DNA of 64,000 nucleotides, taken from contig JADKJM010000016.1 of the NCBI GenBank assembly GCA_016721005.1, positions 276,053 through 340,052 on the forward strand, read 5' to 3'. This DNA is from Flavobacteriales bacterium (GTDB taxonomy: Bacteria > Bacteroidota > Bacteroidia > Flavobacteriales_F > PHOS-HE28). The notes beneath the pieces are model-generated. The model did no database searches, was not told where the DNA came from, and saw only the letters and a program-made list of their open reading frames with translations. Both the position numbers and the translations under genes were made by a program. Below are positions 40,526-63,600 of the stretch, piece after piece; positions within the stretch are counted from its first letter, which is position 1; every line of letters starts with the position of its first letter.

Positions 40526-40762
40526 TCATAGCTTGTCGATCGCGTCCGCGAGTTTCAGATCACGTTCGGTGATCACGTTCCCCGCATCGTGCGTGCTCAA
40601 TCGGATGCTCACGCTGTTGTACACATTGGTCCACTCCGGGTGGTGGTCCTGTTTTTCCGCGATCATGGCTACGCGGGTCATGAAGGCGAACGCCTCACTG
40701 AAGTCCGCGAATTGAAAGTTGCGGCACAGCTTGCCGCCTTCCTCGGTCCAGCTCGTGCTCAT
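40526..40762 (-). CDS. phhB: pterin-4a-carbinolamine dehydratase
   Basis: 78 aa [72 protein letters not shown]; PCD/DCoH signature (E-x-x-x-HHP). Confidence 0.8.
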
Positions 40763-42960
40763 CGGTGGATCGGGAGTTGGATCATTCCGGGAAGAGGTTC
40801 CTGCTTCACCACGTCCATTTCCGCGATCAGGTTGGTCGCGCCAGCGTACTTGTCGATGATGAACAGGACATAGCGCGCATCGACGCAGATGTTCCTGCAC
40901 TTGCTCGGATCGAACTGGATATCGCTCATCGTGCTTTCCCAGGTCCGATCGAAGTTGAGGCCGATGAGCTCCCCACGACCGTTCAGGACAGGGCTTCCGC
41001 TGTTCCCACCCGTGGTGTGCAAGGACGAGGTGAAACAAACCGGCATGCTTCCGTTCATTGCATATCTCCCATAGTCCTTGGCCTTGTGCAGGTCGATCAA
41101 CCGTTGCGGCACATCGAACTCCGCATCACCCGGTATGTACTTCTCCATCACACCATCCAGTGTGGTGAAGTACGTGTACGTGACCGCATCACGGGGAATG
41201 CTTCCTTCCACCTTTCCGTAGCTCAAGCGCAAAGTGCTGTTCGCATCCGGCCAGTAGGTCTTCTCGGGATAGAGCACCATCATGCCTTCCACATAGGTGC
41301 GCATGGCACTCTCGATGCCATCGCTGAGTTGGGCATGTGTTGGCCGGACCTGATCCAGGAAGTTGGTGAAGAAGCTGCGCGAGGCTTTGAAGGCTGGATC
41401 GTTCAGAAGCTTCCGCACACTCTTCGACCCGGGTTTGCTGAAGGCCTTCTCCAGCTTCGCAGGATCGGCAAAGACGCTTCGCGCATAGAGCGCATCGACC
41501 CATTCATCACCATCACCCTTGTACTTGCTATCGATCTCCTTGAGGATGGCGGGTGCGAGTTGGGCAGGGACATACTTCCGGTAGATCGGTAGCAGCGCTT
41601 TGAATACACGCTTGTCCACTTCCACATCGTAGTTCGCGAAGTAGGCTTTGGCATTTGTAAGCAGATCACCCACAGCGCTCTGCAACTTGCCTTCCTTCAC
41701 CAGATCCTGTTGTTTCTCGATCACATCCTTGAACCCATCGGTGAAACGCAACACCTCGGGGCCGTAATAGACCATCTCTACGAAGAGGTCCCGCGCCGTG
41801 GCGTATGGGGTGTATTCGGCATAGAGCCTGGCCAGTTCCGTCAAGGCCGCCGCGTACCGCACTGAATCCAACTGCATGGCGCGAGCGGAGTAAGCAGTCT
41901 CGTACTCGCGCTTTCTCTCAAGCGTGTTCAATTCCTTCAAACCCCGCAACTCCCCGATCCATTTCTTCCAAGCGTTGCTGATCCCGCTTTGCTTGTCGGC
42001 GTATTGCAACCGCGTCCGATCACTGCCCAGCATCGCGGCATCGATCACACCAAGGCTCGCGGTCCGCATGGCGATGCGCATCGGGTCGGATGTGTTCATC
42101 ACATACTCCACCGCGTAGCTGCTTACGTAGCGTTGGGTGTTGCCGGGGAATCCGAAGATCATGGCGTAATCGCCTTCCTGAACGCCATCCAAGCTGATCG
42201 GCAGGACATGGCGCGGGGTGAACGGGACATTCGCATCACTGGGATCCGCTGGTGCGTTGTCCGGGCCGGCGTAGATCCGGAACAGGCTGAAGTCCGCATT
42301 GTGCCGCGGCCACATCCAGTTGTCCGTATCGCCCCCGAATTTCCCGATCGCACTGGGCGGTGCACCCACCAATCGCACATCCTTGAAGGTCTCGGTAACG
42401 ATGAGATAGTAGCTGTTGCCGTAATTGAACGGGCGCACCACCGCCTTGTACCCGGTTCCTTCCACCGCTTCATCCGCAATGGCCTTCCCGAGTTTGTTCG
42501 CCAGATCGCGGCGCGCGGCTTCGTTCATCGCCATCTCCGGGGTGATCTGGGAAAGGATCCTATCGGACACGTCCTCCATGCGCACGATGAACGTGGCGGT
42601 CAAACCGGGGTTTCGCAATTCAGCAGCGTGATCGGCCGCCCAGAAACCGTTCTTCAACCGATCGTTCTCCACCGTGCTGTGATCCGTGATCGCACTGAAG
42701 CCGCAATGGTGGTTCGTTAGGATGAGCCCTTGCCGACTGATCACCTCGGCAGTGCATCCACCGCCGAACAACACGATGGCATCCTTGATGCTGCCGTGGT
42801 TGATGCTATAGATGTCGTCGGCGGAGAGTTTCAGCCCGGCGGACTGTAGATCGCCTTCAATGCTTTTGAGCAATGTCGGCAACCACATACCCTCGTGTGC
42901 GCGGAGACCGGAGGTTGGAACGAGGAGAACAAAGAGTACGGCGGTCAGGCGGTTCAGCAT
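40759..42960 (-). CDS. S46-family dipeptidyl-peptidase (DPP7/DPP11-like)
   Basis: Signal peptide [23 protein letters not shown] and [10 protein letters not shown] motifs characteristic of S46 peptidases. Catalytic Ser region near the C-terminus. Confidence 0.8.
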
Positions 42961-43104
42961 GTCGTGTTGATCAATGGCGAATGTAGGTCGCACGGGAAAC
43001 CAACTGGTGGCACGGCAGTGATCAACCGAGGCATGCATGCCAAACGAGATGATGAAATATCCAGCCGGTTTCTTCTACCTTTCAATGCCCTTACCAACCT
43101 GACC

Positions 43105-45427: not shown

Positions 45428-46990
45428 ATGCGCTTGTCACGAGATCTGTTCTGGTTCGCTGCTTGGGTTGCTCTCCCACCTGGTGTAATAGCCCAAGGAG
45501 CGCTTCCGGATCCACAATTCGGGAACAATGGCTTGGCTGTGGTCCAGAACTACGGGTCATACAATGACATCATCATCAAGCGCATGGACGAGCAGGTGGA
45601 TGGGAAGATCGTGATGATGGGCGACCATCAGATCGGTTCGGAGTTGACCTTGTTCGCTCAACGGTTCAACGCGAACGGCACGATCGATGGTGGATTCGCG
45701 AATGGCGGCCGGTTCTTAGGACCCGACAGTCTTGCGATGGTCGGTGTGAGCAGTGGGCATGCACTTCCTGATGGCAGGCTTCTCCTCGTGTGCCAATACC
45801 GGAATACCACCATAACGCAGCTGGTCCTGGTGATGTTGGACCAGAATGGTGCGCTGGATGCCACCTACGGATCAGGCGGGGTGCGTCGGGAAACGATCGC
45901 CCCCAACACCGCGATCTACCGTTCCATCCGCGCGCCGGACAATTCCATCTACTTCACCGGAATGCAGGGTGCATGGCCGGTGGTAGGCCATGTGCTCCCT
46001 GATGGATCATTCGATCCGGAGTTCGGTACGAATGGCCGGACATTGCTCAACAATGCCCCGTTCAGTTGTTATGCGCGCGATATGGTCTTCTCGGAATCAG
46101 GCTATCTCGTGATCGTATGCCCCCGACTTGCATTCATCAGCCATGGTTGGTGCATGGCAGCCGTGGATCTGCAAGGTGCATTGGTCCCCTGGTTCGGAAC
46201 GAACGGATTCAAGACCATGGACCTCATCGATAATGATCTTGTCGACGAGTATAGCCAACACATCGCCATGCGTCCGGACGGCTCCTTGATCACCTCCGGT
46301 TTGTGGGTGCATGATGGAGCAGGGCACAACATGTATTGGGCCTTCCATCCGGATGGAAGCATCAATGAAGGTTTCGGGAACAATGGCGTGACGGAGGTCC
46401 AGATGGACAATGCCGGCGTTCTCGGCGAAGTGGTGAGCTTGCTGCCCGATGGCGACATCCTGTTCAGCGGCGCTCAATCCAGTTCGAATGGTCTGCTCTG
46501 CAAGACCCGCGTTGTCCGATTGAATGCGGACGGATCCTTCGAAACGGATTTCGGCACCAATGGGATCTACTATCACTATCGACCAGGTGCCATTTTTTCG
46601 CAGGCCGATCGCGGTGGTCTGTTAGCCAACGGAAGATTGGCAGTGGTCGGTGAGATCTCCGCGCCCGGCCCGGTCACCAAGAACGCGATCATGGTCTTCA
46701 ACCTGCAGGACATTTCCACCGGTACTTCGGAAGCATTGAACGGATCGGCCGCTCCGAGCGTCCATCCGAATCCAACGAACGGTACGGTACACCTGCGCGA
46801 TTGGGATCTGGGGCCTTCGGACGAGTTGATCCTTTTTGATGCGCAAGGCCGTCGTCAAGCGCGATGGTCCGGAGCCTTGGTGAATGGCTCAGCACTTGAT
46901 CTACCCGGATATCTTTCCTCGGGTGCCTACACGCTTGTGGTGAATGATCCCGTGGATCGCAAGAGCGCTCGCATCCAGTTGGAGCGCTAG
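45428..46990 (+). CDS. delta-60 repeat protein with T9SS type-A C-terminal sorting domain
   Basis: Signal peptide. Repeated ...NGxLDxxFGxNG units. C-terminal VHPNPTNGTVHLRDWDL...GAYTLVVND...ARIQLER. Confidence 0.6.
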   Translation: MRLSRDLFWFAAWVALPPGVIAQGALPDPQFGNNGLAVVQNYGSYNDIIIKRMDEQVDGKIVMMGDHQIGSELTLFAQRFNANGTIDGGFANGGRFLGPDSLAMVGVSSGHALPDGRLLLVCQYRNTTITQLVLVMLDQNGALDATYGSGGVRRETIAPNTAIYRSIRAPDNSIYFTGMQGAWPVVGHVLPDGSFDPEFGTNGRTLLNNAPFSCYARDMVFSESGYLVIVCPRLAFISHGWCMAAVDLQGALVPWFGTNGFKTMDLIDNDLVDEYSQHIAMRPDGSLITSGLWVHDGAGHNMYWAFHPDGSINEGFGNNGVTEVQMDNAGVLGEVVSLLPDGDILFSGAQSSSNGLLCKTRVVRLNADGSFETDFGTNGIYYHYRPGAIFSQADRGGLLANGRLAVVGEISAPGPVTKNAIMVFNLQDISTGTSEALNGSAAPSVHPNPTNGTVHLRDWDLGPSDELILFDAQGRRQARWSGALVNGSALDLPGYLSSGAYTLVVNDPVDRKSARIQLER

Positions 46991-47783: not shown

Positions 47784-47942
47784 CTACCTGTACTGTTCCA
47801 ACCAATGCTGTTCCGCCACGGAAGTAACGCGTTGTCGACGAATATCGGTATCCGCCCGATGAAACCCCTTGGAGCTTATGCCGTTGAAACCGACAACTCT
47901 ACGTGGGCCCGGACAGCCCACGTGCAAACAAGACACCTCAGT

Positions 47943-50900
47943 ATGCCCACTGCTCAACGGCGATCCTTCCAGCTTATCGTACTGTTGACCAGCCTTTGGG
48001 TTGGACAAGAAACTTTTGGCCAGACCTATTCCTGGCAATGGGGAAAAGGCCTGTCAACAAATTCGGATGAGGAGGTGACGGGGGTTGCGACCCAGAGCAC
48101 CACTGGCGATATCTATAGCTGTGGATATACCGAAGGCACGGGGCTCATCAGCGGAAGTGCAGGAACGGTGAGCGGCGTCCAGGACGCATTCCTGTTCAAA
48201 TACAATGCGAGCGGTATCCAACAGTGGGCGTTCACACCTAGCGGTTCTGGTGAAAGCCGGGCCACCGGTGTGGCCCTTGATGACGCCGGGAACGTGTACG
48301 TGACCGGATGGTTCAAGGGAACCATCGATCTCAACGGCCTTTCGGCAGCCGGGTCCGGTACCGTGATCAGTTCGGGGAACGCCGACTGGTTCATCGCGTC
48401 CTACACACCGGCCGGCGCTTTGAGGTGGCGGACCAAATTGGGCGGAAGCGGGAACGACCTTCCCTCCGGTATCGCCTTGTCACCCACCATGGTCGCTGTA
48501 TTCGGAACGGTGAACGGAAGGATCACCACCTCATTCGGCACCATACCCGTGGCCCTACCGAACAACAAGGACAACCTGGCCCTGGTGGGGTATAACCTCA
48601 CAGGTTCCGGCCAATGGCTGATCTCCGGCGGCAGTGGGGATGATGAGATCGCGCACAGCATGACCATGGCTGGCAGCAAGGCACATGTGGCCTATGATAC
48701 CCAACACCCCACATGCAACTGGTATGGAACCAGCGGAACCTTGCTCACCACGCATGTCGCTTCATCCGATCGGCAGCTCCGGGTTTCGACGTTCGCGAAT
48801 ACCGGGGTCCATCTGTGGACCACCTCGGTGGATGAAGCGGGCAACAACATGCTCGGTTCCGCAGGCCTCGCGGCCGGTTGCGATGCATTGTACATCACCG
48901 GTATCACTGCCTCGCCGACCACCTTCCCCGGTGTGGGAAGCATCTCCACAGGAACGAGCGATATGTTCTTCCTCGGCCGGATCGATCCGGTGACCGGGCA
49001 ATACGAATGGGTGACCACAGGCACTTCGACAGGAAGCAGCAATACGACCGGCGGTGCGGCAGTGACCGTCGGGCGCGCCGGTGTGGTGCATGTGATCGGG
49101 AACTACAAGTCCACGGTGACCATCGGGGGCACGACGCTTACCTCCCCGAACACCAAAATGCAGCCGTTCATCGCGACCTTCCGTTCGACCGGGAGCTTCG
49201 TTCGTAGTGAAAAATTCGTGAGCACGCACGATGCCAGAGGGAGCTGCGTCACGGCCGATGCCACCGGGAATTTCGTGATCGGTGGGTCATTCGACACGGA
49301 TCTCTCCTGCGGGTCCCTCACCCTCGCCGGCCCTGGCAACGCCAACGGGTTCATGTACAAGGGCCTGCTGCCATCAGTAGGTGGAGCGGACCTCTCCTAT
49401 TGGGCCCCACCAGCACCGCTATGCTCCAATGCCGCTCCGTTCAACCTTACAAGCCTGCTCACGCCTACCGTAAGCGGAAGCGCCGCTGCGGTGGCGAACT
49501 CCAATAACGTGGTGGGGCCAGGAGGAGCGGTGGGTGCGGTGCAAGGAAGCTACGCGCAATTCAACACGGCGTCCGGGTATGTGACCCTCGATCTCGGTAT
49601 GACGGTCCCGACCGGAACCTACATCAGCGTACTCTGGCGATCCACCGGCGGTTCGGCCACGGCCAACATCACCTCAGGGACCACGGCCAGTCCACCGGCC
49701 AACTCCAACGGTTCCATCACCACCACATCGACCGCTGCCGTGTATAGTGAACTGCAGCTCACGAGTCCCGCCCGGTACATCCGGATCACGCGACCCGCTT
49801 CCGGCAGCGCCACATTCGAAGTGGACGGGATCTATTACAGCTATGGGAACGATCTCGGCGGCACTTGGTCCGGTACCGGCGTCAGCGGATCCACCTTCGA
49901 CCCGGCCGGTCTTGCGGGGAATATCAACGTTACCTACACGGTCGGCAGCGGTTCATGCGCGAGCGCGACCACGAATGCGATCCAGGTGATCGCGGCGCCG
50001 AACGCCGGAACCAATGGCACGCTTTCCACCTGTGCCGCATCGCCGGCCAGCAACCTGTTCCTGCAACTCGGTGGCAGTCCGCAAGCCGGAGGGATCTGGT
50101 CCGGCCCAAGCCCGGTGATCGGTGGGATGTTCAACCCTGCGACGATGGCACCGGGGAACTACGTGTACACGGTGGTTCCCTCCGGCATTTGCTTGGGCAA
50201 TGCCACAGCCACAGTAGTGGTGACGGTGGGGGCTGCACCGGGTGGCGGAACCTTCACGGGTGGTGGTACGGTCTGCCCTGCCCCAGCGAGCGGGACACTT
50301 TCGATATCAGGCCACAGTGGGACGATCACCGGATGGGCCTATTCCATTGATGGCGGCACCAACTGGAACTTGATCAACAACACGGCCAACAACATCACCT
50401 GGACCAACCTCGGCGTACCCACGATGTACAGGGTCGCTTTGAGCCAGGCTGGATGCGGGAACGGTTCAAGCCCGATCGTCTCCCTTACACCACAAGACCT
50501 CAGCATCCCTGTTCTCATCTGCCCTTCAGTAGAACCGGTTGCGACCGCTTATGCCTCCGGCACCTGCACGATGCAGGTTCCATCCTTTGTTGGACAGTAC
50601 ACGGCAAGCGACAACTGCACTGCTGTGCCGACGGTAGCCCAAACACCGGTCGCGGGTTCGTTCATCCCATTCGATGAGGATGTCCAAGTGACGATCCGAG
50701 CTGTTGATGCCGCCGGAAACGTTTCCTCCACCTGCGTGGCCACGATCATCGGTGTGGACACGTTGGCGGCGACCTTCATCTGCCCGGCGAACAGCGTTGT
50801 CTTCGCACCGGCTAATGTTTGCAGCGCCACACATACGGCCAGCCCGATCGCCTATTCGGACAATTGTTGGGGGAATGGAACCGCAGAGAAGACCTATCTC

Positions 50901-53900
50901 CAAGCCGGGGTCGTGAGCATCACCCCGCTATCCACGTTCGATCCTACTGGCTGGACGGAGATCAGCGCGTCGTTGACCGCAACGCTTCCGATCGGCGATC
51001 ATACCATCGCCTTCGTGCATGAGAACGGGGTTGAGGATGTCGCCCTGTGTTCTTACACGGTATCCGTCGTGGACAACGTCGGTCCCACGATCACTTGCCC
51101 GACCGACATAAGCCAGAACACGGATTTCGGGAGCTGTGGAGCGGTAGTGACCTACTCCACACCTGTGGGCACCGACAACTGCGGTGGAGCGACCACGGCA
51201 CGGACAGCCGGACCAGCATCGGGATCCACCTTCCCTGTGGGATCGACCACCGTAACCCACACCGTTACGGATGCCGTTGGCCTCAGCGCCAGTTGCTCCT
51301 TCTCGGTAACGGTGATCGATGCAACAGCACCCACCATCGCATGCCCGTCCGACATCGCGTTGAACGCCGCTGCCGGTGCTTGCGGTGCGGTGGTCACCTA
51401 CAACACGCCCGCTTTTTCTGACAACTGTCCGGGGGCGACGATAACCCGCACCAGCGGCTTGGCCAGTGGATCTTTGTTCCCTGTGGGTACGACGGTGATC
51501 ACCCATGTGGTCACACCGGTTTCAGGCCCTAGCGCCACCTGCACATTCTGGGTAACGGTGTTCGATAACGAGGTACCCGCCCTCACCGGCTGCAACAACG
51601 TATTCGCCAACACGGCAAGCGGTTGCAGCGCGATCGTGAATTTCCCCACCGCATCCGCTACGGACAACTGCACCACCTGTCCGACAGCGGCGCCTGCTGG
51701 CACCGCTTTGCTAGGCACCTACGATGGCCGCACCTATTACCTGAGCAATTCCGCAGCGCGCTGGTCCGTAGCCAACACGGCGGCCACCAATGCGGGTGGA
51801 CACTTGGCCGTAGTCCGCAATGCGGCGATGAACACTTGGCTACGCGACGCGGTTACCGTTGTGGCGCCGACGGCCGGATTCTGGATCGGCCTGAACGATG
51901 CGGGTGCGGAAGGCACGTTTCGATGGATCAACAGCGCAGCCACGGGCTACCTGCCATGGGACGTCGGGGAGCCGAATAGCGCTGGTGGGAATGAGGACTA
52001 TGTTGAAGTGAAGGTGAATGGTTCTTGGAATGATGAGAAGAACACAACCAGCAGACGCTATGTCGTGGAGGTAGAAGCAACCTGCCTTGCCCCGCAACTC
52101 ATTTCCGGCCAACCCAGTGGTAGCGCTTTTCCTGTTGGTACGACCGCCGTGCAGTACATGAGCACGGATGCAGCTGGCAACTCGAACACGTGCGCGTTCA
52201 ACATCACGGTCACCGACAATAGCGACCCCACCATCACCTGCCCTGCTGCGATGAACGTGAACGCCAACAGCGGTTGCACCGCGACCGGTGTGGCGCTCGG
52301 TTCACCGGTGACCGCCGACAACTGCGGCGTGGCTTCGGTGACCAACAACGCGCCTGCTTCCTTCCCGATCGGTGTGACCACCGTGACCTGGACTGTGACC
52401 GACAACGCTGGACGCACCGCGACCTGCGCGCAGACCGTGACCGTGACGGACAACGTCGATCCGACCATCGTATGTCCTGCTGCGGTGAATGTGTTCACCA
52501 ACAGCGGTTGCACTGCGACCGGGGTGGCGCTCGGAACGCCGGTGACCGCCGACAACTGCGGTGTGGCATCGGTGACCAACAACGCTCCTGCTTCCTTCCC
52601 GATCGGTGTGACCACCGTGACCTGGACTGTGACCGACAACGCTGGACGCACCGCGACCTGCGCGCAGACCGTGACCGTGACGGACAACGTCGATCCGACC
52701 ATCGTATGTCCTGCTGCGGTGAACGTGTTCACCAACAGCGGTTGCACTGCGACCGGGGTGGCGCTCGGAACGCCTGTGACCGCCGACAACTGCGGTGTGA
52801 CTTCAGTGACCAACAACGCTCCTGCTTCCTTCCCGATCGGTGTGACCACCGTGATCTGGACCGTGACCGACAACAGCGGACGCACTGCGACTTGCGCCAG
52901 ACGGTGACCGTCACCGACAACGTCGATCCGACGATCGTATGTCCTGCTGCGGTGAATGTGTTCACCAACAGCGGTTGCACTGCGACCGGGGTGGCGCTCG
53001 GAACGCCGGTGACCGCCGACAACTGCGGTGTGGCATCGGTGACCAACAACGCTCCTGCTTCCTTCCCGATCGGTGTAACCACCGTGACCTGGACTGTGAC
53101 CGACAACGCTGGACGTACCGCTACCTGCGCGCAGACCGTGACCGTGACGGACAACGTCGATCCGACCATCGTATGTCCTGCTGCGGTGAACGTGTTCACC
53201 AACAGCGGTTGCACTGCGACCGGTGTGGCCCTCGGTTCGCCGGTGACCGCCGACAACTGCGGTGTGGCATCGGTGACCAACAACGCTCCTGCTTCCTTCC
53301 CGATCGGTGTAACCACCGTGACCTGGACTGTGACCGACAACGCTGGACGTACCGCTACCTGCGCGCAGACCGTGACCGTGACGGACAACGTCGATCCGAC
53401 CATCGTATGTCCTGCTGCGGTGAATGTGTTCACCAACAGCGGTTGCACTGCGACCGGGGTGGCGCTCGGAACGCCTGTGACCGCCGACAACTGCGGTGTG
53501 GCTTCGGTGACCAACAACGCGCCTGCCTCCTTCCCGATCGGTGCGACCACCGTGATCTGGACCGTGACCGACAACAGCGGACGCACTGCGACTTGCAGCC
53601 AGACGGTGACCGTGACGGACAACGTTGATCCGACCATCGTATGTCCTGCTGCGGTGAATGTGTTCACCAACAGCGGTTGCACCGCGACGGGTGTTGCTCT
53701 CGGTACGCCTGTGACCGCCGACAACTGCGGCGTGATATCAGTGACCAACAACGCTCCTGCTTCCTTCCCGATCGGTGCGACCACCGTGATCTGGACCGTG
53801 ACCGACAACAGCGGACGCACTGCGACTTGCAGCCAGACGATGACCGTGACGGACAACGTTGATCCGACCATCGTATGTCCTGCTGCGGTGAATGTGTTCA

Positions 53901-56900
53901 CCAACAGCGGTTGCACTACGACCGGGGTGGCGCTCGGAACGCCTGTGACCGCCGACAACTGCGGCGTGATATCAGTGACCAACAACGCTCCTGCTTCCTT
54001 CCCGATCGGTGCGACCACCGTGACCTGGACTGTGACCGACAACGCTGGACGTACCGCTACCTGCGCGCAGACCGTGACCGTGACGGACAACGTCGATCCG
54101 ACCATCGTATGTCCTGCTGCGGTGAATGTGTTCACCAACAGCGGTTGCACTGCGACCGGTGTGGCGCTCGGTTCACCGGTGACCGCCGACAACTGCGGCG
54201 TGGCTTCGGTGACCAACAACGCGCCTGCTTCCTTCCCGATCGGTGTGACCACCGTGACCTGGACTGTGACCGACAACGCTGGACGCACCGCGACCTGCGC
54301 GCAGACCGTGACCGTGACGGACAACGTCGATCCGGACCATCGTATGTCCTGCTGCGGTGAATGTGTTCACCAACAGCGGTTGCACTGCGACCGGGGTGGC
54401 GCTCGGAACGCCTGTGACCGCCGACAACTGCGGTGTGGCTTCGGTGACCAACAACGCGCCTGCCTCCTTCCCGATCGGTGCGACCACCGTGATCTGGACC
54501 GTGACCGACAACAGCGGACGCACTGCGACTTGCAGCCAGACGGTGACCGTGACGGACAACGTTGATCCGACCATCGCATGTCCTGCTGCGGTGAATGTGT
54601 TCACCAACAGCGGTTGCACCGCGACGGGTGTTGCTCTCGGTACGCCTGTGACCGCCGACAACTGCGGCGTGATATCAGTGACCAACAACGCTCCTGCTTC
54701 CTTCCCGATCGGTGCGACCACCGTGATCTGGACCGTGACCGACAACAGCGGACGCACTGCGACTTGCAGCCAGACGATGACCGTGACGGACAACGTTGAT
54801 CCGACCATCGTATGTCCTGCTGCGGTGAATGTGTTCACCAACAGCGGTTGCACTACGACCGGGGTGGCGCTCGGAACGCCTGTGACCGCCGACAACTGCG
54901 GCGTGATATCAGTGACCAACAACGCTCCTGCTTCCTTCCCGATCGGTGCGACCACCGTGACCTGGACTGTGACCGACAACGCTGGACGTACCGCTACCTG
55001 CGCGCAGACCGTGACCGTGACGGACAACGTCGATCCGACCATCGTATGTCCTGCTGCGGTGAATGTGTTCACCAACAGCGGTTGCACTGCGACCGGTGTG
55101 GCGCTCGGTTCACCGGTGACCGCCGACAACTGCGGCGTGGCTTCGGTGACCAACAACGCGCCTGCTTCCTTCCCGATCGGTGTGACCACCGTGACCGGAC
55201 TGTGACCGACAACGCTGGACGCACCGCGACCTGCGCGCAGACCGTGACCGTGACGGACAACGTCGATCCGACCATCGTATGTCCTGCTGCGGTGAATGTG
55301 TTCACCAACAGCGGTTGCACTGCGACCGGGGTGGCGCTCGGAACGCCGGTGACCGCCGACAACTGCGGTGTGGCATCGGTGACCAACAACGCTCCTGCTT
55401 CCTTCCCGATCGGTGTGACCACCGTGACCTGGACTGTGACCGACAACGCTGGACGCACCGCGACCTGCGCGCAGACCGTGACCGTGACGGACAACGTCGA
55501 TACGACCATCGTATGTCCTGCTGCGGTGAATGTGTTCACCAACAGCGGTTGCACTGCGACCGGTGTGGCGCTCGGAACGCCTGTGACCGCCGACAACTGC
55601 GGCGTGGCATCGGTGACCAACAATGCACCTGCTTCCTTCCCGATCGGTGTGACCAGCGTGATCTGGACCGTGACCGATAACAGCGGACGCACTGCGACTT
55701 GCAGCCAGACGGTGACCGTGGCCGACAACGTCGATCCGACGATCGTGTGTCCGGCTGCGGTGAACGTGTTCACCAACAGCGGTTGCACTGCGACCGGGGT
55801 GGCGCTCGGAACGCCTGTGACCGCCGACAACTGCGGTGTGGCTTCGGTGACCAACAACGCGCCTGCCTCCTTCCCGATCGGTGTGACCACCGTGATCTGG
55901 ACCGTGACCGACAACGCTGGACGCACCGCTACTTGCAACCAGACTGTGACCGTGACGGATCTGGACACCGATGGCGATGGAACAAGTGACTGTTTGGACG
56001 GTTGCCCCAACGACCCCAACAAGGTGGCACCTGGCATCTGCGGTTGCGGCATCGCGGAGGGGTCTTGTCAGGATTGTCTTGGAGTTCCGTTCGGCCCTGC
56101 TGTCATCGGTTCAAGCTGCAACGACGGCAACGCTTCAACCGGCAACGATGTGTACCAGGCCAACTGTGCTTGCGCTGGTCAACAAATCGATTGCCTCGGC
56201 GTGGCCGGTGGTTCTGCACTGATCGGTACTGCGTGTGATGACGGCAACGCTTCAACCGGCAACGATATCTATCAAGCCAACTGCGCCTGCGCTGGTCAAC
56301 TCATCGATTGCCTCGGCGTGGCTGGTGGTACCGCGCTGATCGGAACGCCGTGCAACGATGGCAACGCTTCAACCGGTAACGACATCTTCCAACTCGATTG
56401 CTCGTGCGCCGGTCAGCTCATCGACTGTATCGGCGTGGCGGGTGGCACTGCGTTGATCGGTACTGCTTGCGACGATGGCAATGCTTCAACCGGCAACGAT
56501 GTGTACCAGGCCAACTGCGCCTGCGCAGGTCAACTCATTGATTGCCTCGGGGTCGCTGGTGGAACTGCGTTGATCGGTACTGCTTGTGATGATGGCAACG
56601 CTTCGACCGGCAACGATGTGTACCAGGCCAACTGCTCCTGCGCGGGTCAACTCATCGATTGCCTTGGTGTCGCTGGTGGAACTGCACTGATCGGAACTCC
56701 GTGCAACGATGGCATTGCTTCGACCGGCAACGACATGTTCCTGTTGGATTGCTCGTGCGCGGGTCAGCTCATCGATTGCCTTGGTGTGGCCGGTGGCGCT
56801 GCGCTGATCGGAACTGCGTGCAACGACGGCAACGCTTCGACCGGCAACGATGTGTATCAAGCCAACTGCGCCTGCGCTGGCCAACTCATCGATTGCCTCG

Positions 56901-59900
56901 GGGTCGCTGGTGGAACTGCGTTGATCGGTACTGCTTGTGATGATGGCAACGCTTCGACCGGCAACGATGTGTACCAGGCCAACTGCGCCTGCGCAGGTCA
57001 ACTCATTGATTGCCTCGGGGTCGCTGGTGGAACTGCGTTGATCGGTACTGCTTGTGATGATGGCAACGCTTCGACCGGCAACGATGTGTACCAGGCCAAC
57101 TGCTCCTGCGCGGGTCAACTCATCGATTGCCTTGGTGTCGCTGGTGGAACTGCACTGATCGGAACTCCGTGCAACGATGGCATTGCTTCGACCGGCAACG
57201 ACATGTTCCAGTTGGATTGCTCGTGCGCGGGTCAGCTCATCGATTGCCTTGGCGTGGCCGGTGGTACTGCGTTGATCGGAACTCCTTGCAACGATGGCAA
57301 CGCTTCAACCGGCAACGATGTGTACCAGGCCAACTGCTCCTGCGCGGGTCAACTCATCGATTGCCTTGGTGTCGCTGGTGGAACTGCACTGATCGGAACT
57401 CCGTGCAACGATGGCAATGCTTCGACCGGCAACGACATGTTCCAGTTGGATTGCTCGTGCGCGGGTCAACTCATCGATTGCCTTGGCGTGGCTGGTGGTA
57501 CTGCGTTGATCGGAACCGCGTGCAACGATGGCAACGCTTCAACCGGCAACGATGTGTACCAGGCCAACTGCGCTTGCGCTGGTCAACTCATCGACTGCCT
57601 TGGTGTGGCCGGTGGTGCTGCGTTGATCGGAACTCCTTGCAACGATGGCAATGCTTCGACCGGCAACGACATGTTTCAGTTGGATTGCTCGTGTGCGGGT
57701 CAACTCAACGATTGCCTCGGGGTCGCTGGTGGCACTGCGCTGATCGGAACTCCTTGCAACGACGGCAACGCTTCAACAGGCAACGACATGTTCCAGTTGG
57801 ATTGTTCCTGCGCGGGTCAGCTCATCGATTGCCTCGGGGTCGCTGGTGGTGCTGCGTTGATCGGAACTCCTTGCAACGATGGCAATGCTTCAACAGGCAA
57901 CGATCTCTATCAAGCCAACTGCGCCTGCGCCGGTCAACTCATTGATTGCCTCGGTGTGGCCGGTGGAACTGCGCTGATCGGAACCGCTTGCAACGATGGC
58001 AACGCTTCAACCGGCAACGATCTCTATCAGGCCAACTGCGCTTGCGCGGGGCAGCTCATCGATTGCATTGGTGTGGCCGGTGGTTCTGCGCTGATCGGAA
58101 CGCCGTGCAACGATGGCAACGCTTCGACCGGCAACGACATGTTCCAGTTGGATTGCTCGTGCGCTGGCCAACTCATCGATTGCCTTGGGGTCGCGGGTGG
58201 AACTGCGCTGATCGGAACGCCGTGCAACGATGGCAACGCTTCGACCGGCAACGATGTGTACCAAGCCAACTGTGCTTGCGCTGGCCAGCTCATCGATTGC
58301 CTTGGCGTCGCTGGTGGCACCGCATTGATCGGAACTCCGTGCAACGACAACAATGCTTCTACCGGCAACGATGTGTACCTGGCCAACTGTGCTTGCGCTG
58401 GCCAACTCATCGATTGCCTTGGCGTGGCCGGTGGTGCTGCACTGATCGGAACTCCTTGCAACGACAACAACGCTTCGACCGGCAACGACATGTTCCAATT
58501 GGATTGCGCCTGCGCTGGCCAACTCATCGATTGCCTCGGTGTGGCCGGTGGAACTGCGCTGATCGGAACCGCTTGCAACGATGGCAACGCTTCGACCGGC
58601 AACGATGTGTACCAGGCCAACTGTGCTTGCGCTGGTCAACTCATTGATTGCATTGGTGTCGCTGGTGGAACTGCACTGATCGGAACTCCGTGCAACGATG
58701 GCATTGCTTCGACCGGCAACGACATGTTCCAGTTGGATTGCTCGTGCGCGGGTCAGCTCATCGATTGCCTTGGTGTGGCCGGTGGTGCTGCGTTGATCGG
58801 AACTCCTTGCAACGATGGCAACGCTTCAACCGGTAACGATGTGTACCAGGCCAACTGCGCCTGCGCCGGTCAACTCATCGATTGCCTTGGTGTGGCCGGT
58901 GGCACTGCGCTGATCGGAACGCCGTGCAACGACGGCAATGCGATGACCATAAACGACCTATGGAGTGCGAATTGCGCATGCGCCGGCACCCCGGTCACGT
59001 GTACGAGCGAAGCCGGTCCGGATCAAACGATCTGCGGCACGATCGCTCAACTGAACGCATCCGGCAACGGAAGTTGGAGCGTGACACCGGGCATCTCGTT
59101 CAGCGCGATGACCAACCCGCTAGCGACCATCACAGCGAGCACTTCCGGCACTTACCAGTTGATCTGGACGGTCGTTGTTGGAGCATGCAGCGCTGCCGAT
59201 ACAGCGACGGTGACCTTCCATCCGCAATCAGATGCTTCCTTCTCCTTTGGCCAGTCGACCTACTGCGCGACCAGCATGTCACCAACCCCATGGGCAGCTG
59301 ATCTGAACGGCAGCTTCAGCGCTACCCCGAATGGCCTTGTTCTGAATACTGCGGATGGATCCATAGATCCCGCAGCGAGCGCACCGGGCACCTATACCAT
59401 CACCCATTCGATCAGTGGGGATTGTCCGGCGATGGCGACACAGACTGTCACGATCGTTGCAGGCGCGAATGCGGATTGGAACATGCCCGACCCGATCTGC
59501 GACAACGCGATCGCTATCGAGTTGAACAACCTGGTCACCGGCGATCTCGGTGGAACATGGTCCGGTCAAGGTGTGATCGGTTCGCAATTCAACCCGACGA
59601 ATTTGAGCGGGGGCATCCCGGTCACCTACACGGTATCCATCGGGGGCTGCCAAGCGCAATCCACACAGTTGGTCCACGTGATCGCTTCACCGATCGCCAA
59701 TGCCGGCCCGGATGCATCCGTGTGCGGCAGAGACTTCGTGCTCGGCGCGATCCCCTCCAATGGAACGGGTTCATGGAGTGTACCTGTGGGCATCTCCATC
59801 AACTCGAGTGCAAGCGATCCGAACGCGCAGATCAGCGCTTCATCCTATGGAACGTACACCATGATCTGGAGCGTGACCAATGGGTCATGCACATCAACGG

Positions 59901-60445
59901 ATATGGTCAGCATCACCTTCCTCGATCCCAACCTGGGTCTGTGGGTGAACGCCGGTCCGGACCAATTCCTGGAGGTGCTATCCAACACCGAGTTGCAGGG
60001 CGATGCCACGCAAGGTGCGAACCTGTCATGGTGGGTGCTTTCCGGATCGGCTACCATCAGTTCACCATCCGATGCCGCGACCGGTATCAGCGGGTTGGGC
60101 ATCGGCGACAACCTGGTGATCCTTTCCGCCAGCATGGGCATCTGCGCCTCCATCAGCGATACTGTGCTGATCCACGTGGATGACCTCTTCATCCCGGAAG
60201 GCTATTCGCCCAATGGTGATGGCGTGAATGATACATGGTACATCACCGGCATGTTGGCCTACCCGGGAAGTGAATTGAAAGTGTTCAATCGCTGGGGTCA
60301 GTTGGTGTACGACACCGGGGGCTATGCCAACGAGTGGGACGGCCACGCCAACAACGGCCGACAGCTCCCGGATGACACCTATTTCTATGTCCTGAACTTA
60401 AAAGGTGAGCGCGCGTACAACGGTCACGTTATTATAAAAAGGTGA
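47943..60445 (+). CDS. giant multi-repeat cell-surface adhesin (about 4,167 codons) with C-terminal T9SS type-B (CHU_C / gliding-motility-associated) domain; reading frame interrupted by three single-base indels (about 52895, 54335, 55195)
   Basis: Signal peptide at 47943. SBBP-like propeller repeats (48.0-49.4 kb), divergent HYR domains (50.5-51.65 kb), C-type lectin domain (51.7-52.08 kb). 16 x 234-bp HYR tandem repeats (52217-55960). 25 x 117-bp Cys-rich repeats (56073-58990). Ig-like segments, then FIPEGYSPNGDGVNDTW...YFYVLNLKGERAYNGHVIIKR at the C-terminus. The four ORF-track pieces (47805..52907, 52274..54565, 54357..55205, 54812..60445) join exactly at the indel sites. Confidence 0.75.
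51700..52080 (+). other. C-type lectin domain with EPN motif inside the adhesin
   Basis: GFWIGLNDAGAEGTFRWINSAATGYLPWDVGEPNSAGGNEDYVEVKVNGSWNDEKN. Classic CTLD WIGL...W...EPN...WND spacing, including the long-loop Ca/carbohydrate-site residues. Confidence 0.65.
52217..55960 (+). repeat. 16 tandem near-identical 234-bp (78-aa) HYR-domain repeats
   Basis: Unit DNVDPTIVCPAAVNVFTNSGCTATGVALGTPVTADNCGVASVTNNAPASFPIGVTTVTWTVTDNAGRTATCAQTVTVT repeated with only a few substitutions. The period is confirmed by 234-bp spacing of the ORF-track fragments. Confidence 0.85.
56073..58990 (+). repeat. about 25 tandem 117-bp (39-aa) four-cysteine repeats of unrecognised type
   Basis: Unit DCLGVAGGTALIGTPCNDGNASTGNDVYQANCACAGQLI (variants MFQLDCSC, IASTGND). 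Four invariant Cys per unit. Confidence 0.8.
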
Positions 60446-61362
60446 ATCCGATCAAGGGCATTCTTGCGATCACCGCCATCGCCATTGCGGCACTGGCACA
60501 GGGGCAACATACGCCCCTGACCAGCCATTACCTGTTCAATGGATTGGTGATCAACCCGGCCTACGCCGGTAGCAGGGATGCGCTTACCGCTACCCTGACC
60601 CACCGCCAACAATGGGTGGGTTTCGATGGTGCACCGATCACCCAGACCATAAGCATTCACGCCCCGGTGAGCCGCTCTAAAGTGGGCCTTGGCCTGCTCA
60701 TCTTCAATGACCGTATCGGGGTGAGCAACGAAACCGGGGTGCTCTCGAACTATTCCTATCGGCTCCGGTTCCCGAATGGCAAATTATCTCTTGGCATCGG
60801 CGCCGGATTTACTGTTCTGCGTGCCGATTGGTCACGCGTGAGCATCCAGGACCAGAACGATCCTTCATTCGCCGGTTTCACACGCGGCGCCATCCGGCCG
60901 AACTTCAGTACGGGTGCGTACTACTACACGAAGACCTGGTACATCGGGGCTTCCATGCCCTTCGCGCTCATCCATCAATACGACGACGGTGGTGGCTACA
61001 ACATCTCGAACGAACGGTTCAACCTGCAACCCATGATCACGGGAGGGCATGTCTTCCCGATCAATGATGACTTCAAATTGAAACCGACCGCTTTGATCCG
61101 TTACCGGATGGACAGCGGCATTCAAGGTGACATCAGTTCGAACGTGATCTACAAGGACAAGGTCTGGGGCGGTATCTCCTATCGCACGGGTGATGCGCTG
61201 GTCGGATCGGTGGAAGTGCTTCCCACGCCGCAATGGCGGATCGGGTACGCCTATGATCTCGGTCTTTCCGCCATCCGGCCTTACCACAGCGGTTCGCATG
61301 AATTGCTGGTCCAATATGAATTCGGATATCGTTTGCGGGTGCGTGACCCGCGCTACTTCTAA
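60442..61362 (+). CDS. PorP/SprF-family type IX secretion system membrane protein
   Basis: GTG start overlaps the adhesin stop (GTGA). Signal peptide, then HYLFNGLVINPAYAGS (PorP/SprF N-terminal signature) and a beta-barrel-like remainder ending in an aromatic residue. Confidence 0.8.
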   Translation: MNPIKGILAITAIAIAALAQGQHTPLTSHYLFNGLVINPAYAGSRDALTATLTHRQQWVGFDGAPITQTISIHAPVSRSKVGLGLLIFNDRIGVSNETGVLSNYSYRLRFPNGKLSLGIGAGFTVLRADWSRVSIQDQNDPSFAGFTRGAIRPNFSTGAYYYTKTWYIGASMPFALIHQYDDGGGYNISNERFNLQPMITGGHVFPINDDFKLKPTALIRYRMDSGIQGDISSNVIYKDKVWGGISYRTGDALVGSVEVLPTPQWRIGYAYDLGLSAIRPYHSGSHELLVQYEFGYRLRVRDPRYF

Positions 61363-61365
61363 GCG

Positions 61366-63600
61366 ATGAGGCCGTTCTGGTCCATAGCACTCCTGTTCAT
61401 CCTGCCATTCACGGCCGGAGCGCAATACATCCATGAGGTTCGCGCGCTTGACGTGCGCCCGACCGGCGAGGACTACGCACCCGTGTTCCAGGACAGCGGG
61501 TTCGTGATGGTCTCTGTCCGGGAGTCGAGTGCCGTGATCGGTTTCAAGGATGCGGAAACGGACAAGCCTCTTTCCGATCTGTACTGGGTACCGTTCAAGG
61601 ATGGGGTTTGTGGACAGCCCGTACTATTCAGCCAGAACCTGACCACACCGGTGAATGAAGGCCCAGCCGCGTTCACCAACGGTGGCAAGACCATTTGCTT
61701 CACACGGAACCAAGTGCTGCCGAAGAAGCTCTCGAACATGCGCGGAGCGAGCGCACAACTCGGACTGTTCTTCTCCGAATTGCAGAATGGCATGTGGTCC
61801 GCTCCAACGCCTTTTGCGCACAACGATCCCAAATACTCCATCATGCATCCGACCTTCAGCATGGACGGGCGCACGATGTACTTCGCCAGCGATATTCCAG
61901 GAGGTGTTGGAGGAATGGATCTCTATCGCAGCATGAAGACCGCCGCTGGATGGTCGAAGCCGGAATCATTGGGCCCGGAAGTGAACACCGTCGCGAACGA
62001 GGTCTTCCCACGGATGAATGCCGATGGCACCTTGGCCTTCGCTAGCGACCGCACAGGTGGACTAGGAAAGCTCGACATCTATTTGACCCGTGAGCGGGAC
62101 GGCCACTGGGATCTTCCGGAGGCATTGCCAGCACCGATCAACAGCCCGGCCAATGATCACGGCTATTCGTTGATGCCCGACGGCTACTCGGCGTTGTTCA
62201 CCTCGAACAGGACAGGTATCGATGCGATCCACTTCGTCAAGCGGACCATTCCGAAATTCCAGGATTGCACCGAGCAACAGCGGAACAACTACTGCTATGC
62301 CTTCAGCCGTAGGCCACACATGGCCACCAGTTCGATCCCGGTGGATCATGTGTGGGACATGGGTGACGGAACGATGATCAAAGGCTACCAAGCGCAGCAT
62401 TGCTACACCGCACCGGGCAACTACACCGTTCGCTCCCTTCTCGTTGATCGGAAAACCGGGGCGGTCTTCTACGCCTTGAGCTCGAATGACCTTGTGGTCG
62501 CGGACATCAAACAGGTGTGGGTCAATGCACAGGATACCGTTCGCACTGGTCGCGCGCTGGAACTGATCGGCACCACCGGTTTCCTCGCGGACATCGATCC
62601 CGGTGAATACCAATGGGACTTCGGCGATGGATCCACGCACGAGGGCTCCCGATTGAACCACGTGTTCAAACAAGCAGGGGTGTATGAAGTGAAGCTGGAT
62701 GTGATCTCCAAACCGGGACCACAAGGAGTACTGGCTCACCAGTGCAACTCCAAGAAGATCATCGTGATCGATCGGTTCAAGGATCAAGAGGACATGGCCG
62801 TAGTGGCGGTCTATCAGGATGCATTGGGTAAGAATCATTCCTTCGAATACCAGGAACTGCCGTTCGACCACACCGAACTCGAGGGCGAGGCACTCACCGA
62901 TGTGGTGTTCTCGGTCCAGCTTTTCGCAAGCAAGGAAAGGATCGATCTGGACGATGCACGGTTCATCGCCATCAAGAAGCAATTCCGGGTGATCGAACGT
63001 TTCGATCCCGAACTTGGAGTTTATACCTACTCCGTGGGCGAGACGAAGAATGTGGAAGAACTCTACCAAGTGTTCCGCAAGGTGAAGGATCTTCAATTCC
63101 TCGATGCAGAGGTCTTCGCATTACGCGAGGAGAAACTGATGGACCTGAGCCAGCTGAACCTTTCCGCCCTGGAGGATCTGAACCACAAAAAGCTCCGGAC
63201 CAGTGCCATCCATTTTGCATACAAGAGCGCGGCACTTGAGCCGGGTTCCGAAGTCGTCCTTGATCAGATCACAGGCTTGATGCGCCAGCACCCCGAATTG
63301 CAATTGGTGATCGAGGCGCATACCGATGACATCGGCAGCCGCCAATACAACATCGAGCTTTCCCAACAGCGCGCTGCCTCGGTGGTGGAGTACCTCGCCG
63401 GTCAGCAAGTCGCGGATGAGCGCCTCCTGCCCATCGGCCATGGCAAGAACCAACCGATCGCCAGCAACAAGACCGAAGAAGGTCGCAGCTTGAACCGCCG
63501 CGTGGAATTCCGCATGGTGGTGAAAGGCGATGCGCCGAAAGCCGGTACCGAGTTAACCGGTATTCCTGCACCTCGCTCGGTCAAGTCGGCGAAGCCCTGA
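61366..63600 (+). CDS. OmpA-family protein with TolB-like beta-propeller and PKD-like regions
   Basis: Signal peptide MRPFWSIALLFILPFTAGAQ. TolB/WD40-like repeats. PKD-like segment (WDMGDGTMIKGYQAQHCYTAPGNYTV). C-terminal OmpA domain (TDDIGSRQYNIELSQQRAASVVEYL...NRRVEF). Confidence 0.8.
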   Translation: MRPFWSIALLFILPFTAGAQYIHEVRALDVRPTGEDYAPVFQDSGFVMVSVRESSAVIGFKDAETDKPLSDLYWVPFKDGVCGQPVLFSQNLTTPVNEGPAAFTNGGKTICFTRNQVLPKKLSNMRGASAQLGLFFSELQNGMWSAPTPFAHNDPKYSIMHPTFSMDGRTMYFASDIPGGVGGMDLYRSMKTAAGWSKPESLGPEVNTVANEVFPRMNADGTLAFASDRTGGLGKLDIYLTRERDGHWDLPEALPAPINSPANDHGYSLMPDGYSALFTSNRTGIDAIHFVKRTIPKFQDCTEQQRNNYCYAFSRRPHMATSSIPVDHVWDMGDGTMIKGYQAQHCYTAPGNYTVRSLLVDRKTGAVFYALSSNDLVVADIKQVWVNAQDTVRTGRALELIGTTGFLADIDPGEYQWDFGDGSTHEGSRLNHVFKQAGVYEVKLDVISKPGPQGVLAHQCNSKKIIVIDRFKDQEDMAVVAVYQDALGKNHSFEYQELPFDHTELEGEALTDVVFSVQLFASKERIDLDDARFIAIKKQFRVIERFDPELGVYTYSVGETKNVEELYQVFRKVKDLQFLDAEVFALREEKLMDLSQLNLSALEDLNHKKLRTSAIHFAYKSAALEPGSEVVLDQITGLMRQHPELQLVIEAHTDDIGSRQYNIELSQQRAASVVEYLAGQQVADERLLPIGHGKNQPIASNKTEEGRSLNRRVEFRMVVKGDAPKAGTELTGIPAPRSVKSAKP

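Follow-up and report, generated by a model that had tools for sequence, protein, structure and literature searches.

A tandem four-cysteine repeat of 39 residues in a putative T9SS-secreted giant adhesin of a Flavobacteriales bacterium

The window, a 64,000-nucleotide stretch of Flavobacteriales DNA, encodes a giant surface adhesin in which about 975 residues are made up by a four-cysteine repeat: 25 units follow one another without a gap, each exactly 39 aa (117 nt) long. The repeat is real, and the array lies far beyond chance. We put the probability at roughly 0.6 that the units are autonomous disulfide-rich mini-domains which, head to tail, would form a stiff, protease-resistant shaft (stalk or spacer) of an adhesin secreted by the T9SS. 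No catalogued family covers the unit, and it recurs in a large number of other proteins, nearly all from Bacteroidota.

The repeat array and its host gene

Translation of ORF 54812..60445 (+) and parsing into units gives the copy number that the initial annotation had estimated, within limits (Table 1) that replace its 56073–58990. Tandem Repeats Finder (TRF) independently reports a period of 117, 24.1 copies, 83% matches and 0% indels over 56117..58938. Cysteines at positions 2, 16, 32 and 34 are invariant, as had been proposed, and so within the window are D1, G4, V5, G8, A10, I12, G13, D18, A21, T23, N25, D26, A35 and G36. Two sub-variants were described, and both exist: 16 units are of the [VIL][YW]..NC[AS]C type (consensus VYQANCAC) and nine of the MFQLDCSC type. 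They are interspersed, however, and do not strictly alternate as was claimed. A window-wide search found the unit motif nowhere else in the window.

Nucleotide identity between units averages 82%, with pS 0.49 against pN 0.083, dN/dS of approximately 0.10–0.11 and dS of approximately 0.78; the invariant residues are encoded by many synonymous codons. With dN/dS near 0.1, the array frame is therefore coding and every unit is under purifying selection. The units are old duplicates, not a low-complexity expansion.

An array without function, produced by recent slippage or low-complexity expansion, by faulty assembly of repeats or as part of a dead pseudogene, might be suspected from three 1-nt indels in the neighbouring HYR array (by unit alignment, a deletion at ~52898, an insertion at ~54335 and a deletion at ~55197), with which the HYR reading frame shifts 0→2→0→2 along the gene. 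Units 5-6 and 9-10 are also 100% and 99% identical, indicating a recent four-unit duplication, and the exact proteins of the window have no record elsewhere. Nevertheless, the units differ at 18% of nucleotides, chiefly synonymously, the 2925-nt array holds no indel or stop, and the unit is conserved across hundreds of proteins of other genomes. None of the frameshifts falls within the array; they are in 92%-identical repeats, which are prone to assembly errors, and an orthologue on another MAG contig (462,659 bp) is fragmented alike (P0065, P0008 and P0308). For the repeat itself this explanation is largely refuted, and we consider it highly improbable. Given the frameshifts in this assembly, the adhesin may not be produced at all in the organism.

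Table 1. Features of the adhesin gene and its downstream neighbours (window coordinates)
Feature	Position	Strand	Basis and remarks
Giant surface-adhesin gene, ~4200 aa	47805..60445	+	ORF list, translations, Pfam
HYR array, ~16 near-identical 78-aa domains	52242..55959	+	TRF, Pfam HYR; upstream part of the shaft
Cys-rich cap ahead of the array	55958..56071	+	TSP3-like DLDTDGDGTSDCLDGCPND, then APGICGCGIAEGSCQ; translation
Four-cysteine repeat array	56072..58996	+	25 tandem 39-aa (117-nt) units; consensus DCLGVAGGTALIGTPCNDGNASTGNDVYQANCACAGQLI
Four to five Ig/PKD-like domains with 'AGPDQxxC' starts	58997..60190	+	Translation; between stalk repeat and sorting domain
T9SS type-B C-terminal sorting domain (CHU_C / Bac_Flav_CTERM)	60191..60442	+	PF13585 1.2e-24, TIGR04131 7e-19
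PorP/SprF-family outer-membrane protein	60442..61362	+	PF11751 7.3e-72, full length
PD40 + PKD + OmpA-family protein	61366..63600	+	Pfam OmpA 2.3e-19, PKD_4 5e-24, PD40 2.9e-19

The adhesin gene falls into four ORF pieces (47805-52907, 52274-54565, 54357-55205 and 54812-60445). Its true start is probably the Met at 47943, followed by RRSFQLIVLLTSLWVGQETFG, which by eye resembles a signal peptide. Pfam recognizes SBBP, many HYR, Lectin_C and CHU_C domains, and the order is head domains, HYR array, four-cysteine array, Ig-like domains and CHU_C. The HYR array has a TRF period of 234 nt (15.9 copies, 92% matches; Pfam HYR 3.7e-69). The cap includes a lead-in, 'APGxCGCGxxEPG', that also opens arrays in homologues. 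The Ig/PKD-like block is kept in orthologues (46–57% identity), several of which have a precomputed K319L-like_PKD (PF22352) assignment.

The sorting-domain match takes up the last 84 residues of the adhesin, and the start of the PorP/SprF gene overlaps the stop codon of the cargo gene. Type-B cargo is anchored by PorP-like proteins (PMC9143113), and the anchors of Bacteroidetes fibrillar adhesins are CHU_C and Por_Secre_tail (PMC8286594). The sorting domain and the adjacent PorP/SprF gene identify the host protein as a T9SS type-B cargo, with the PorP/SprF-family protein as its likely cognate anchor or shuttle. The OmpA-family gene is the third of the usual cargo/PorP/OmpA trio.

Predicted fold and cysteine pairing

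AlphaFold2 modelled a single unit, in the phase used here, with pLDDT 95.0 and pTM 0.62, and four units with pLDDT 96.3. Strands at residues 23–28 and 34–39 and a bridge at residue 15 appear in both models; the unit is thus predicted to fold autonomously as a beta-hairpin with a Gly-rich loop. One hairpin per unit does not accord with the beta-helical analogue suggested initially. Mean-field DCA on 1032 two-unit segments (Meff 623) supports the predicted hairpin independently of AlphaFold2: the top couplings, 24-39, 29-33 and 24-37, define it. Further couplings link residue 28 to 5/10/11/14 and, across the unit boundary, residue 39 to residue 6 of the following unit.

In the proposed layout, a Gly-rich loop (2–15) would be followed by an acidic/polar loop, C-[ND]-D-G-[ND]-x-x-T-x-[ND]-D (16–26), and by the hairpin, whose aromatic residue 28 would pack on the loop. 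The four cysteines would probably make two disulfides, tying C2 and C16 of the loop to C32 and C34, which form the CxC at the tip of the hairpin. Residue 39 would touch residue 6 of the next unit, so that successive units would be locked together.

Cysteine counts behind the arrays of homologues fit pairing within the unit. Where the last unit has no extra Cys, the number of cysteines behind it is even in 130 of 185 cases (20 with none); where it has an extra Cys22, that number is odd in 62 of 65 (56 from one protein family). Alternatively, C2 of unit n+1 may complete the set of core n. This pairing fits the array ends in the window better: it explains the five upstream cysteines together with the first C2, and the conserved extra Cys immediately after the last unit. 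It would also explain why Cys22 cores never precede a one-Cys linker (0/248 vs 1562/1624).

Relation to catalogued families

Searches of Pfam and NCBIfam for the repeat gave no match at E≤1 with one unit, four units or the whole protein; a 'Haemadin' line in the family search comprised 0 significant stretches. PDB sequence and profile searches with the repeat were empty, and Foldseek found nothing in the PDB at E<1 for the four-unit or the one-unit model. The PDB searches yielded no solved structure for the 39-aa unit or for Dicty_CTDC (PF00526), the latter being listed among repeat families without known structure (PMC8078820). As no family covers the unit and the repeat occurs elsewhere, neither of the outcomes against which the initial annotation had set its proposal, a confident hit to an existing family or a repeat confined to this locus, was found.

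Several small disulfide-rich extracellular tandem modules are comparable in kind. The C-x-C-x-G motif is reminiscent of EGF, but the unit has four cysteines instead of six; for the EGF-like analogue suggested initially, there was no EGF family match on the window protein or its units and no EGF fold by Foldseek. The sole EGF line is EGF_4 (E 0.47), on homologue P0032. The D/N-rich loop recalls thrombospondin (TSP) type-3 repeats (PF02412 / PF18884), to which arrays can be physically adjacent, but no TSP fold was matched, and the TSP_3 matches fall on inter-core linkers of P0032 and P0162, not on the unit. The Myxococcus cysteine-rich repeat (TIGR02232 / DUF4215) gave no NCBIfam or Pfam match at E≤1.

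The statement that the repeat belongs to no named family therefore holds for the unit as a whole, but a partial placement can be made, since the core aligns with repeats like Dicty_CTDC, the repeat of the slime mold Dictyostelium. With hhalign, the unit profile matched CTDC-like segments over 21 columns (unit residues 15–35) at 87% probability and E 4e-6, the CTDC side being 12 bacterial segments chosen by pattern, not the Pfam seed. Both are short extracellular Cys-rich tandem repeats, with a start of the form C-[DN]-D-G-N-x-(C)-T-x-D. The two can share a protein, as in P0162, where true CTDC repeats adjoin the four-cysteine array, and one can take the other's place in orthologous adhesins, as CTDC repeats do in P0357. 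Core variants of homologues that bear Cys22 match PF00526, although at 14–18.6 bits only (gathering score 27 bits) and over model positions 1–10 of 24.

The 39-aa repeat could on this evidence be a divergent member of PF00526, in which case no new family would be needed and the earlier failure to place it would reflect model sensitivity. We consider this quite unlikely. PF00526 does not match the window units even at E≤10, and the hhalign comparison set is small. A standard CTDC unit has 24 residues and the pattern C-x5-C-x4-C-x4-6-C, which the 39-aa period with Cys 2/16/32/34 does not follow. The CTDC cysteines at 7 and 12 (its second and third) are missing, Ser/Met22 and Val/Met27-Tyr28 standing in their places, while C-x-C-x-G and a Gly-rich loop of 14 residues (DCxGVxGGxAxxGT), which contains a Cys itself, are additions in the unit. 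The core, approximately 25 aa, resembles Dicty_CTDC only weakly, below the Pfam threshold.

A second relative is an unannotated 30-aa repeat of Bacteroidota adhesins, DCxGV[WF]GGTAFxDNCGxCVGGNTGxxAC (P0314, P0327 and P0006), which likewise has four cysteines per unit and no Pfam model. Its first ~12 residues (DCxGVxGGxAxx) are common to the 39-aa unit, while its second half, DNCGxCxGGxTG, differs from the C[ND]DGN..T..D..CxC core. The 39-aa unit has the appearance of a mosaic, with the loop of the 30-aa repeat joined to a core of CTDC type. What is conserved is the core of ~25 aa, C[ND]DG[ND]xxTxxDx5CxCxG; the 39-aa period is only one among several.

Distribution and proposed role

A four-unit profile matches 1613 protein cluster representatives, nearly all from Bacteroidota, and 733 proteins match the whole array. 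In homologues the array usually has N-terminal domains ahead of it and a T9SS sorting domain behind it. Among 230 full-length homologues, a median of 590 aa precedes it and 178 aa follow, 76% of arrays end in the C-terminal quarter of the protein, and the number of cores ranges from 3 to 31. The N-terminal partners vary (GEVED/PKD_6, reprolysin-like, fn3, He_PIG and HYR).

Orthologues with the same Ig-like and CHU_C tail differ in the repeat at the array position. P0308 has the 39-aa repeat there, P0314 and P0327 have the 30-aa repeat (DCxGVWGGTAFxDNCGxCVGGNTG), and P0357 has genuine Dicty_CTDC repeats (67.9 bits). That different Cys-rich repeats can fill one position speaks for interchangeable modules serving as stalk or spacer. 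The initial proposal of a stalk module for T9SS adhesins fits this swapping, as it does the type-B host and the position of the arrays in homologues.

The stalk domain as a concept for bacterial fibrillar adhesins comes from earlier work (PMC8286594, PMC9210967), with Ig-like, HYR and SprB repeats in T9SS cargo as examples. As in those stalks, modules of equal length stand in tandem, in varying copy number, between adhesive or enzymatic domains and a CHU_C/Por_Secre_tail anchor. Known stalk domains are beta-sandwiches of 70–100 residues with a hydrophobic core or isopeptide bonds; the 39-residue unit, in contrast, is a predicted hairpin module that appears disulfide-dependent. We suggest that the adhesin would be exported by Sec and then oxidized and folded in the periplasm. 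The T9SS would carry it across the outer membrane via the type-B C-terminal domain, and the PorP/SprF-like and OmpA-family proteins encoded directly downstream would retain it at the surface. The Cys-repeat array, more than 20 HYR domains and the Ig-like domains would together hold a 'head', formed by the N-terminal beta-propeller and the C-type lectin, away from the cell.

The array might instead be a multivalent binding surface, in which the acidic/polar loops, probably with Ca2+, bind a ligand and 25 copies serve avidity, not length. The ligand could, for example, be a polysaccharide, or the array could bind a mineral surface or another cell. Apart from the cysteines, the residues conserved most strongly do lie in this loop: in 2254 unique core instances from homologous proteins D18 and D26 are invariant (both fixed by the collecting pattern), T23 is 95% conserved, and positions 17 and 20 are nearly always N or D. 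The loop (D18, T23, D26 and [ND]17/20/25) is conserved beyond the need of a passive spacer, and could be a ligand or Ca2+ binding site. The core also occurs alone beside Ca2+-binding TSP type-3 repeats in many proteins, and in single copies in otherwise different proteins, where a pure spacer would not need it. However, the Asp, Asn and Thr residues may be structural, as turn formers or structural Ca2+ sites (cf. TSP3 and LDLR-A modules), and arrays are located between other, recognizable head domains and the anchor. Orthologues also substitute unrelated-looking Cys repeats, and the gene context points to no ligand. A binding role for the array itself is therefore considered unlikely, and a stalk remains the preferred reading.

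No new biological principle is involved, as tandem modules rich in Cys are well known and so are the stalks of adhesins; the repeat is real but uncatalogued, and matters mainly as a domain family awaiting cataloguing. Tentatively, at a little under even odds, it represents a new mini-domain family, without structure or model, in which two disulfides fasten a beta-hairpin to a Gly-rich loop. This family, the 30-aa repeat and the bacterial CTDC repeats would then make up one superfamily of disulfide 'Lego' modules that are interchangeable and recombine, used by Bacteroidota (mostly uncultured Flavobacteriales and Saprospiraceae) to build the stalks of T9SS surface proteins and tune their length. 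The 39-aa domain is tiny, confidently predicted and apparently autonomous, and no structural relative was found, which makes it a cheap structure target; it may also be useful as a rigid building block. Giant T9SS adhesins abound in metagenomes from wastewater, freshwater and marine sites, where most of them are uncharacterized, and at least 1600 protein clusters with large repeat parts are now labelled 'hypothetical' or after a flanking domain. Profiles for the 39-aa repeat and its 30-aa sister would allow the surface proteomes of Bacteroidota to be better annotated.

The repeat array and its host gene

The array consists of 25 back-to-back units, each of exactly 39 aa, which occupy residues 421–1395 of the translated product of ORF 54812..60445 on the plus strand. 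All 25 units in the window have Cys at positions 2, 16, 32 and 34 (C2, C16, C32 and C34), and 14 further positions are invariant. Translation and TRF (117-nt period, 24.1 copies, 83 % matches, no indels) bear out the approximately 25 four-cysteine copies described in the initial annotation. The two sub-variants said to alternate are instead interspersed, with a VYQANC[AS]C-type hairpin in 16 units and MFQLDCSC in nine. A window-wide search found no unit motif elsewhere in the window.

Nucleotide differences between units amount to 18 % (array mean identity 82 %) and are mostly synonymous (pS 0.49, pN 0.083), with a dN/dS of about 0.10–0.11. This pattern marks the array as an old coding repeat under selection and rules out a slippage product or artefact. 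The low dN/dS and the many homologues elsewhere also speak against the low-complexity expansion that had been considered as an alternative. As the synonymous-substitution pattern agrees with the plus frame, minus-strand ORFs within the array (e.g. 56486..57118) were treated as by-products of the GC-rich repeat rather than as genes. The sole sign of recent duplication in the array is the 100 % and 99 % nucleotide identity of units 5–6 to units 9–10, which indicates that a four-unit (468-nt) block was duplicated recently by unequal recombination.

The adhesin encoded by the host gene has a signal-peptide-like N terminus, near which lies an SBBP-type (SBBP/LipL53-like) beta-propeller region, and then several unique HYR domains together with a C-type lectin domain. 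C-terminal to this part, about 16 nearly identical HYR repeats of 78 aa lead to a TSP3-like/CGCG cap and the array of 25 Cys units. Four to five Ig/PKD-like domains separate the array from a CHU_C type-B T9SS sorting domain, which both Pfam and NCBIfam match. The Pfam lines Haemadin, DUF5608 and Csa5 were rejected as tiny matches summed over repeats, with 0 significant stretches or scores below cut-off. Genes for a PorP/SprF protein (7e-72) and a PD40-PKD-OmpA protein lie directly 3' of the adhesin gene; adhesin, PorP/SprF and OmpA-type genes are the usual trio for type-B cargo, which PorP-like proteins hold at the cell surface (PMC9143113). Just upstream are genes for two adjacent DUF5122 beta-propeller repeat proteins, and a family S46 dipeptidyl-peptidase gene lies on the opposite strand. 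The best homologues (52–76 % identity) and a GC content of about 59 % suggest a Flavobacteriales-like organism.

Three single-base indels split the adhesin gene into four ORFs in the present assembly; the Cys array is intact, unlike the frameshifted HYR array of the same gene. As the indels fall in near-identical repeats, and the orthologous gene of another MAG (462,659-bp contig; protein fragments P0065, P0008 and P0308) is broken up likewise, this suggests consensus errors in MAG-assembly repeats rather than true pseudogenes.

Features of the adhesin gene and its surroundings in the window
Feature	Position	Strand	Basis or remark
Family S46 dipeptidyl-peptidase gene	40759..43038	-	
DUF5122 repeat protein genes	42895..45393, 45428..46990	+	
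Giant adhesin gene, ~4200 aa	47805 (probably 47943)..60445	+	ORFs, translation, Pfam
C-type lectin domain, PF00059	51759..52064	+	3.4e-13; aa 1319–1420 of ORF 47805..52907, embedded between HYR domains
HYR array, 234-nt repeat, 92 % identical	52242..55959	+	1-nt indels near 52898, 54335 and 55197
Four-Cys unit array	56072..58996	+	translation, unit parsing
Units 5–6 / units 9–10	56540..56773 / 57008..57241		near-identical pairs
Last Ig-like domain before CTD	~60000..60100	+	…SASMGICASISDTVLIHV

Distribution and relation to known families

Searches of Pfam-A and NCBIfam (E<=1) yielded no family for the repeat, whether the query was a single unit, four units or the entire protein; phmmer and profile searches over all PDB sequences were empty, and no published description of the 39-aa repeat was found in the literature. 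A preprint on diatom adhesives reports Cys-rich repeats, which belong to other families. The domain and structure libraries queried thus lack the unit, in line with the earlier view that it has no named family. NCBI names of its homologues derive solely from flanking domains (T9SS sorting, fn3, TSP3 or HYR).

The repeat is common in other Bacteroidota genomes, where the initial annotation had proposed to look for it. A whole-array search at E<=1e-5 retrieved 733 proteins, almost all from Flavobacteriales MAGs and with up to 19 units per single array, and an exhaustive HMM search with a four-unit profile retrieved 1613 cluster representatives at E<=1e-3 (806 at E<=1e-10). The window's 25 units form the longest single 39-aa array among those examined; the homologue P0162 has 31 cores, split over two arrays.

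The conserved entity in these sequences is a core of approximately 25 aa, C[ND]DG[ND]xxTxxDx5CxCxG, because the same core sits in repeats of many periods (29–30, 35–37, 39, 41, 46, 49 and 86 aa) with differing linkers. In the 39-aa unit, a Gly-rich loop of 14 residues, DCxGVxGGxAxxGT, is added to this core. A degenerate DNA pattern of the core, for which we estimate about 0.03 chance matches in 596 Gb, was scanned over one genome per GTDB species and matched at least 120 loci. Tallied by record labels, the 120 loci among the matches listed include about 50 of Flavobacteriales type, 48 Saprospiraceae/Chitinophagales, four Spirosomataceae (one being the isolate Runella aurantiaca YX9, with a single core), 13 unclassified Bacteroidota and five non-Bacteroidota MAGs. 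Single core copies also occur in MAGs labelled Comamonadaceae, Luminiphilus, Gammaproteobacteria, Absconditabacterales and one archaeon (loci L003, L009, L047, L058 and L091); in the first three the core adjoins another Cys motif, C[TN]DxxACNYDxxAxxDDGSC. These copies may reflect horizontal spread or bin contamination.

Judged by sequence, the nearest named family is Dicty_CTDC (PF00526), itself of no known structure. A genuine CTDC repeat (30.4 bits) adjoins the unit arrays of P0162, core variants with an extra Cys at position 22 (Cys22) match positions 1–10 only of the PF00526 model, below threshold, and an hhalign comparison of the unit profile with 12 CTDC-like segments from bacteria aligns unit residues 15–35 at a probability of 87 %. 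The core is probably a distant relative of CTDC and not a family member.

Predicted fold and disulfide pairing

AlphaFold2 models of four units, a multi-unit fragment as the initial annotation had recommended (47-row alignment; pLDDT 96.3, pTM 0.65), and of a single unit in the phase of the initial annotation (pLDDT 95.0, pTM 0.62) agree on strands at residues 23–28 and 34–39 and an isolated bridge at residue 15; the multi-unit model has a further bridge at residue 6 of each following unit. Independently of AlphaFold2, mean-field DCA of 1032 two-unit segments recovers the hairpin (couplings 24–39, 29–33 and 24–37), packs aromatic residue 28 on loop residues 5, 10, 11 and 14, and places residue 39 in contact with residue 6' of the next unit. 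Models and couplings together predict that the unit is a hairpin under its own Gly-rich loop, bridged to its neighbour. The EGF-like or beta-helical analogue previously proposed gives way to this single hairpin: with one hairpin per unit in both AlphaFold2 and DCA, a beta-helix was rejected, and the predicted unit is not of the EGF fold.

Disulfide pairing was assessed from Cys parity in natural variants. After cores lacking Cys22, the Cys count of the next linker is odd (one in 1562 linkers, three in 36 and five in 25) except for a single linker that has none; after cores with Cys22, it is even (two in 235 linkers and four in 13). At array ends, Cys22 and a following C2 hardly ever occur together. 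This agrees with a shifted phase, where core n would be completed by the C2 of unit n+1, and such a phase suits the window's own array ends better than does a closed set. C-terminal parity favours the closed unit instead: counting all Cys past the last core, the remainder is odd in 62 of 65 ends with Cys22 and even in 130 of 185 without it (20 of them with zero), while N-terminal parity is uninformative (89 vs 66). The C-terminal parity and the confident single-unit model favour a closed set {C2, C16, C32, C34} in each unit of that phase. In such closed units, Cys22, where present, could supply one more link to the following module. The Ig-like domain nearest the CTD contains a single conserved Cys without the customary partner, as does that of the orthologue P0322; this Cys would be free under one disulfide model and bonded to the extra Cys ending the stalk array under the other.

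Position within adhesins and putative stalk role

In 230 full-length homologues, a median of 590 aa lies N-terminal to the arrays and 178 aa C-terminal, and 76 % of arrays end within the C-terminal quarter. The arrays follow very diverse N-terminal domains and precede a sorting domain of type A or type B. Proteins orthologous to the C-terminal 482 aa of the window's adhesin (46–57 % identity) keep the Ig-like and CHU_C tail, and the repeats just upstream of it differ between proteins: the 39-aa repeat in P0308, a 30-aa repeat accompanied by one or two cores in P0314 and P0327, and bona fide CTDC repeats (67.9 bits) in P0357.

The 30-aa repeat, DCxGV[WF]GGTAFxDNCGxCVGGNTGxxAC, is a second Cys-rich tandem repeat, also present in the homologues P0006 and P0043; it has no copy in the window and no Pfam match. 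It has its first ~12 residues in common with the 39-aa unit, both starting with the Gly-rich loop DCxGVxGGxAxxGT, and stands in place of that unit in orthologous T9SS type-B adhesins.

Since small Cys-rich repeats swap at one position and copy number varies from 3 to 31 among homologues, the array probably acts as a stalk or spacer that sets the length of a fibrillar adhesin, a concept already described (PMC8286594). The initial annotation's suggestion of a T9SS-adhesin stalk module gains from array location, module swapping and variable copy number, and we put its probability at roughly 0.6. The very conserved D/N/T loop might give the array a multivalent Ca2+- or ligand-binding role, which seems unlikely and would be compatible with a stalk. 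The unit would resemble known adhesin modules as a short, disulfide-rich, extracellular tandem stalk module, distantly CTDC-like. The repeat represents no new biological principle; it is of use for annotation and as a small target for structural work.
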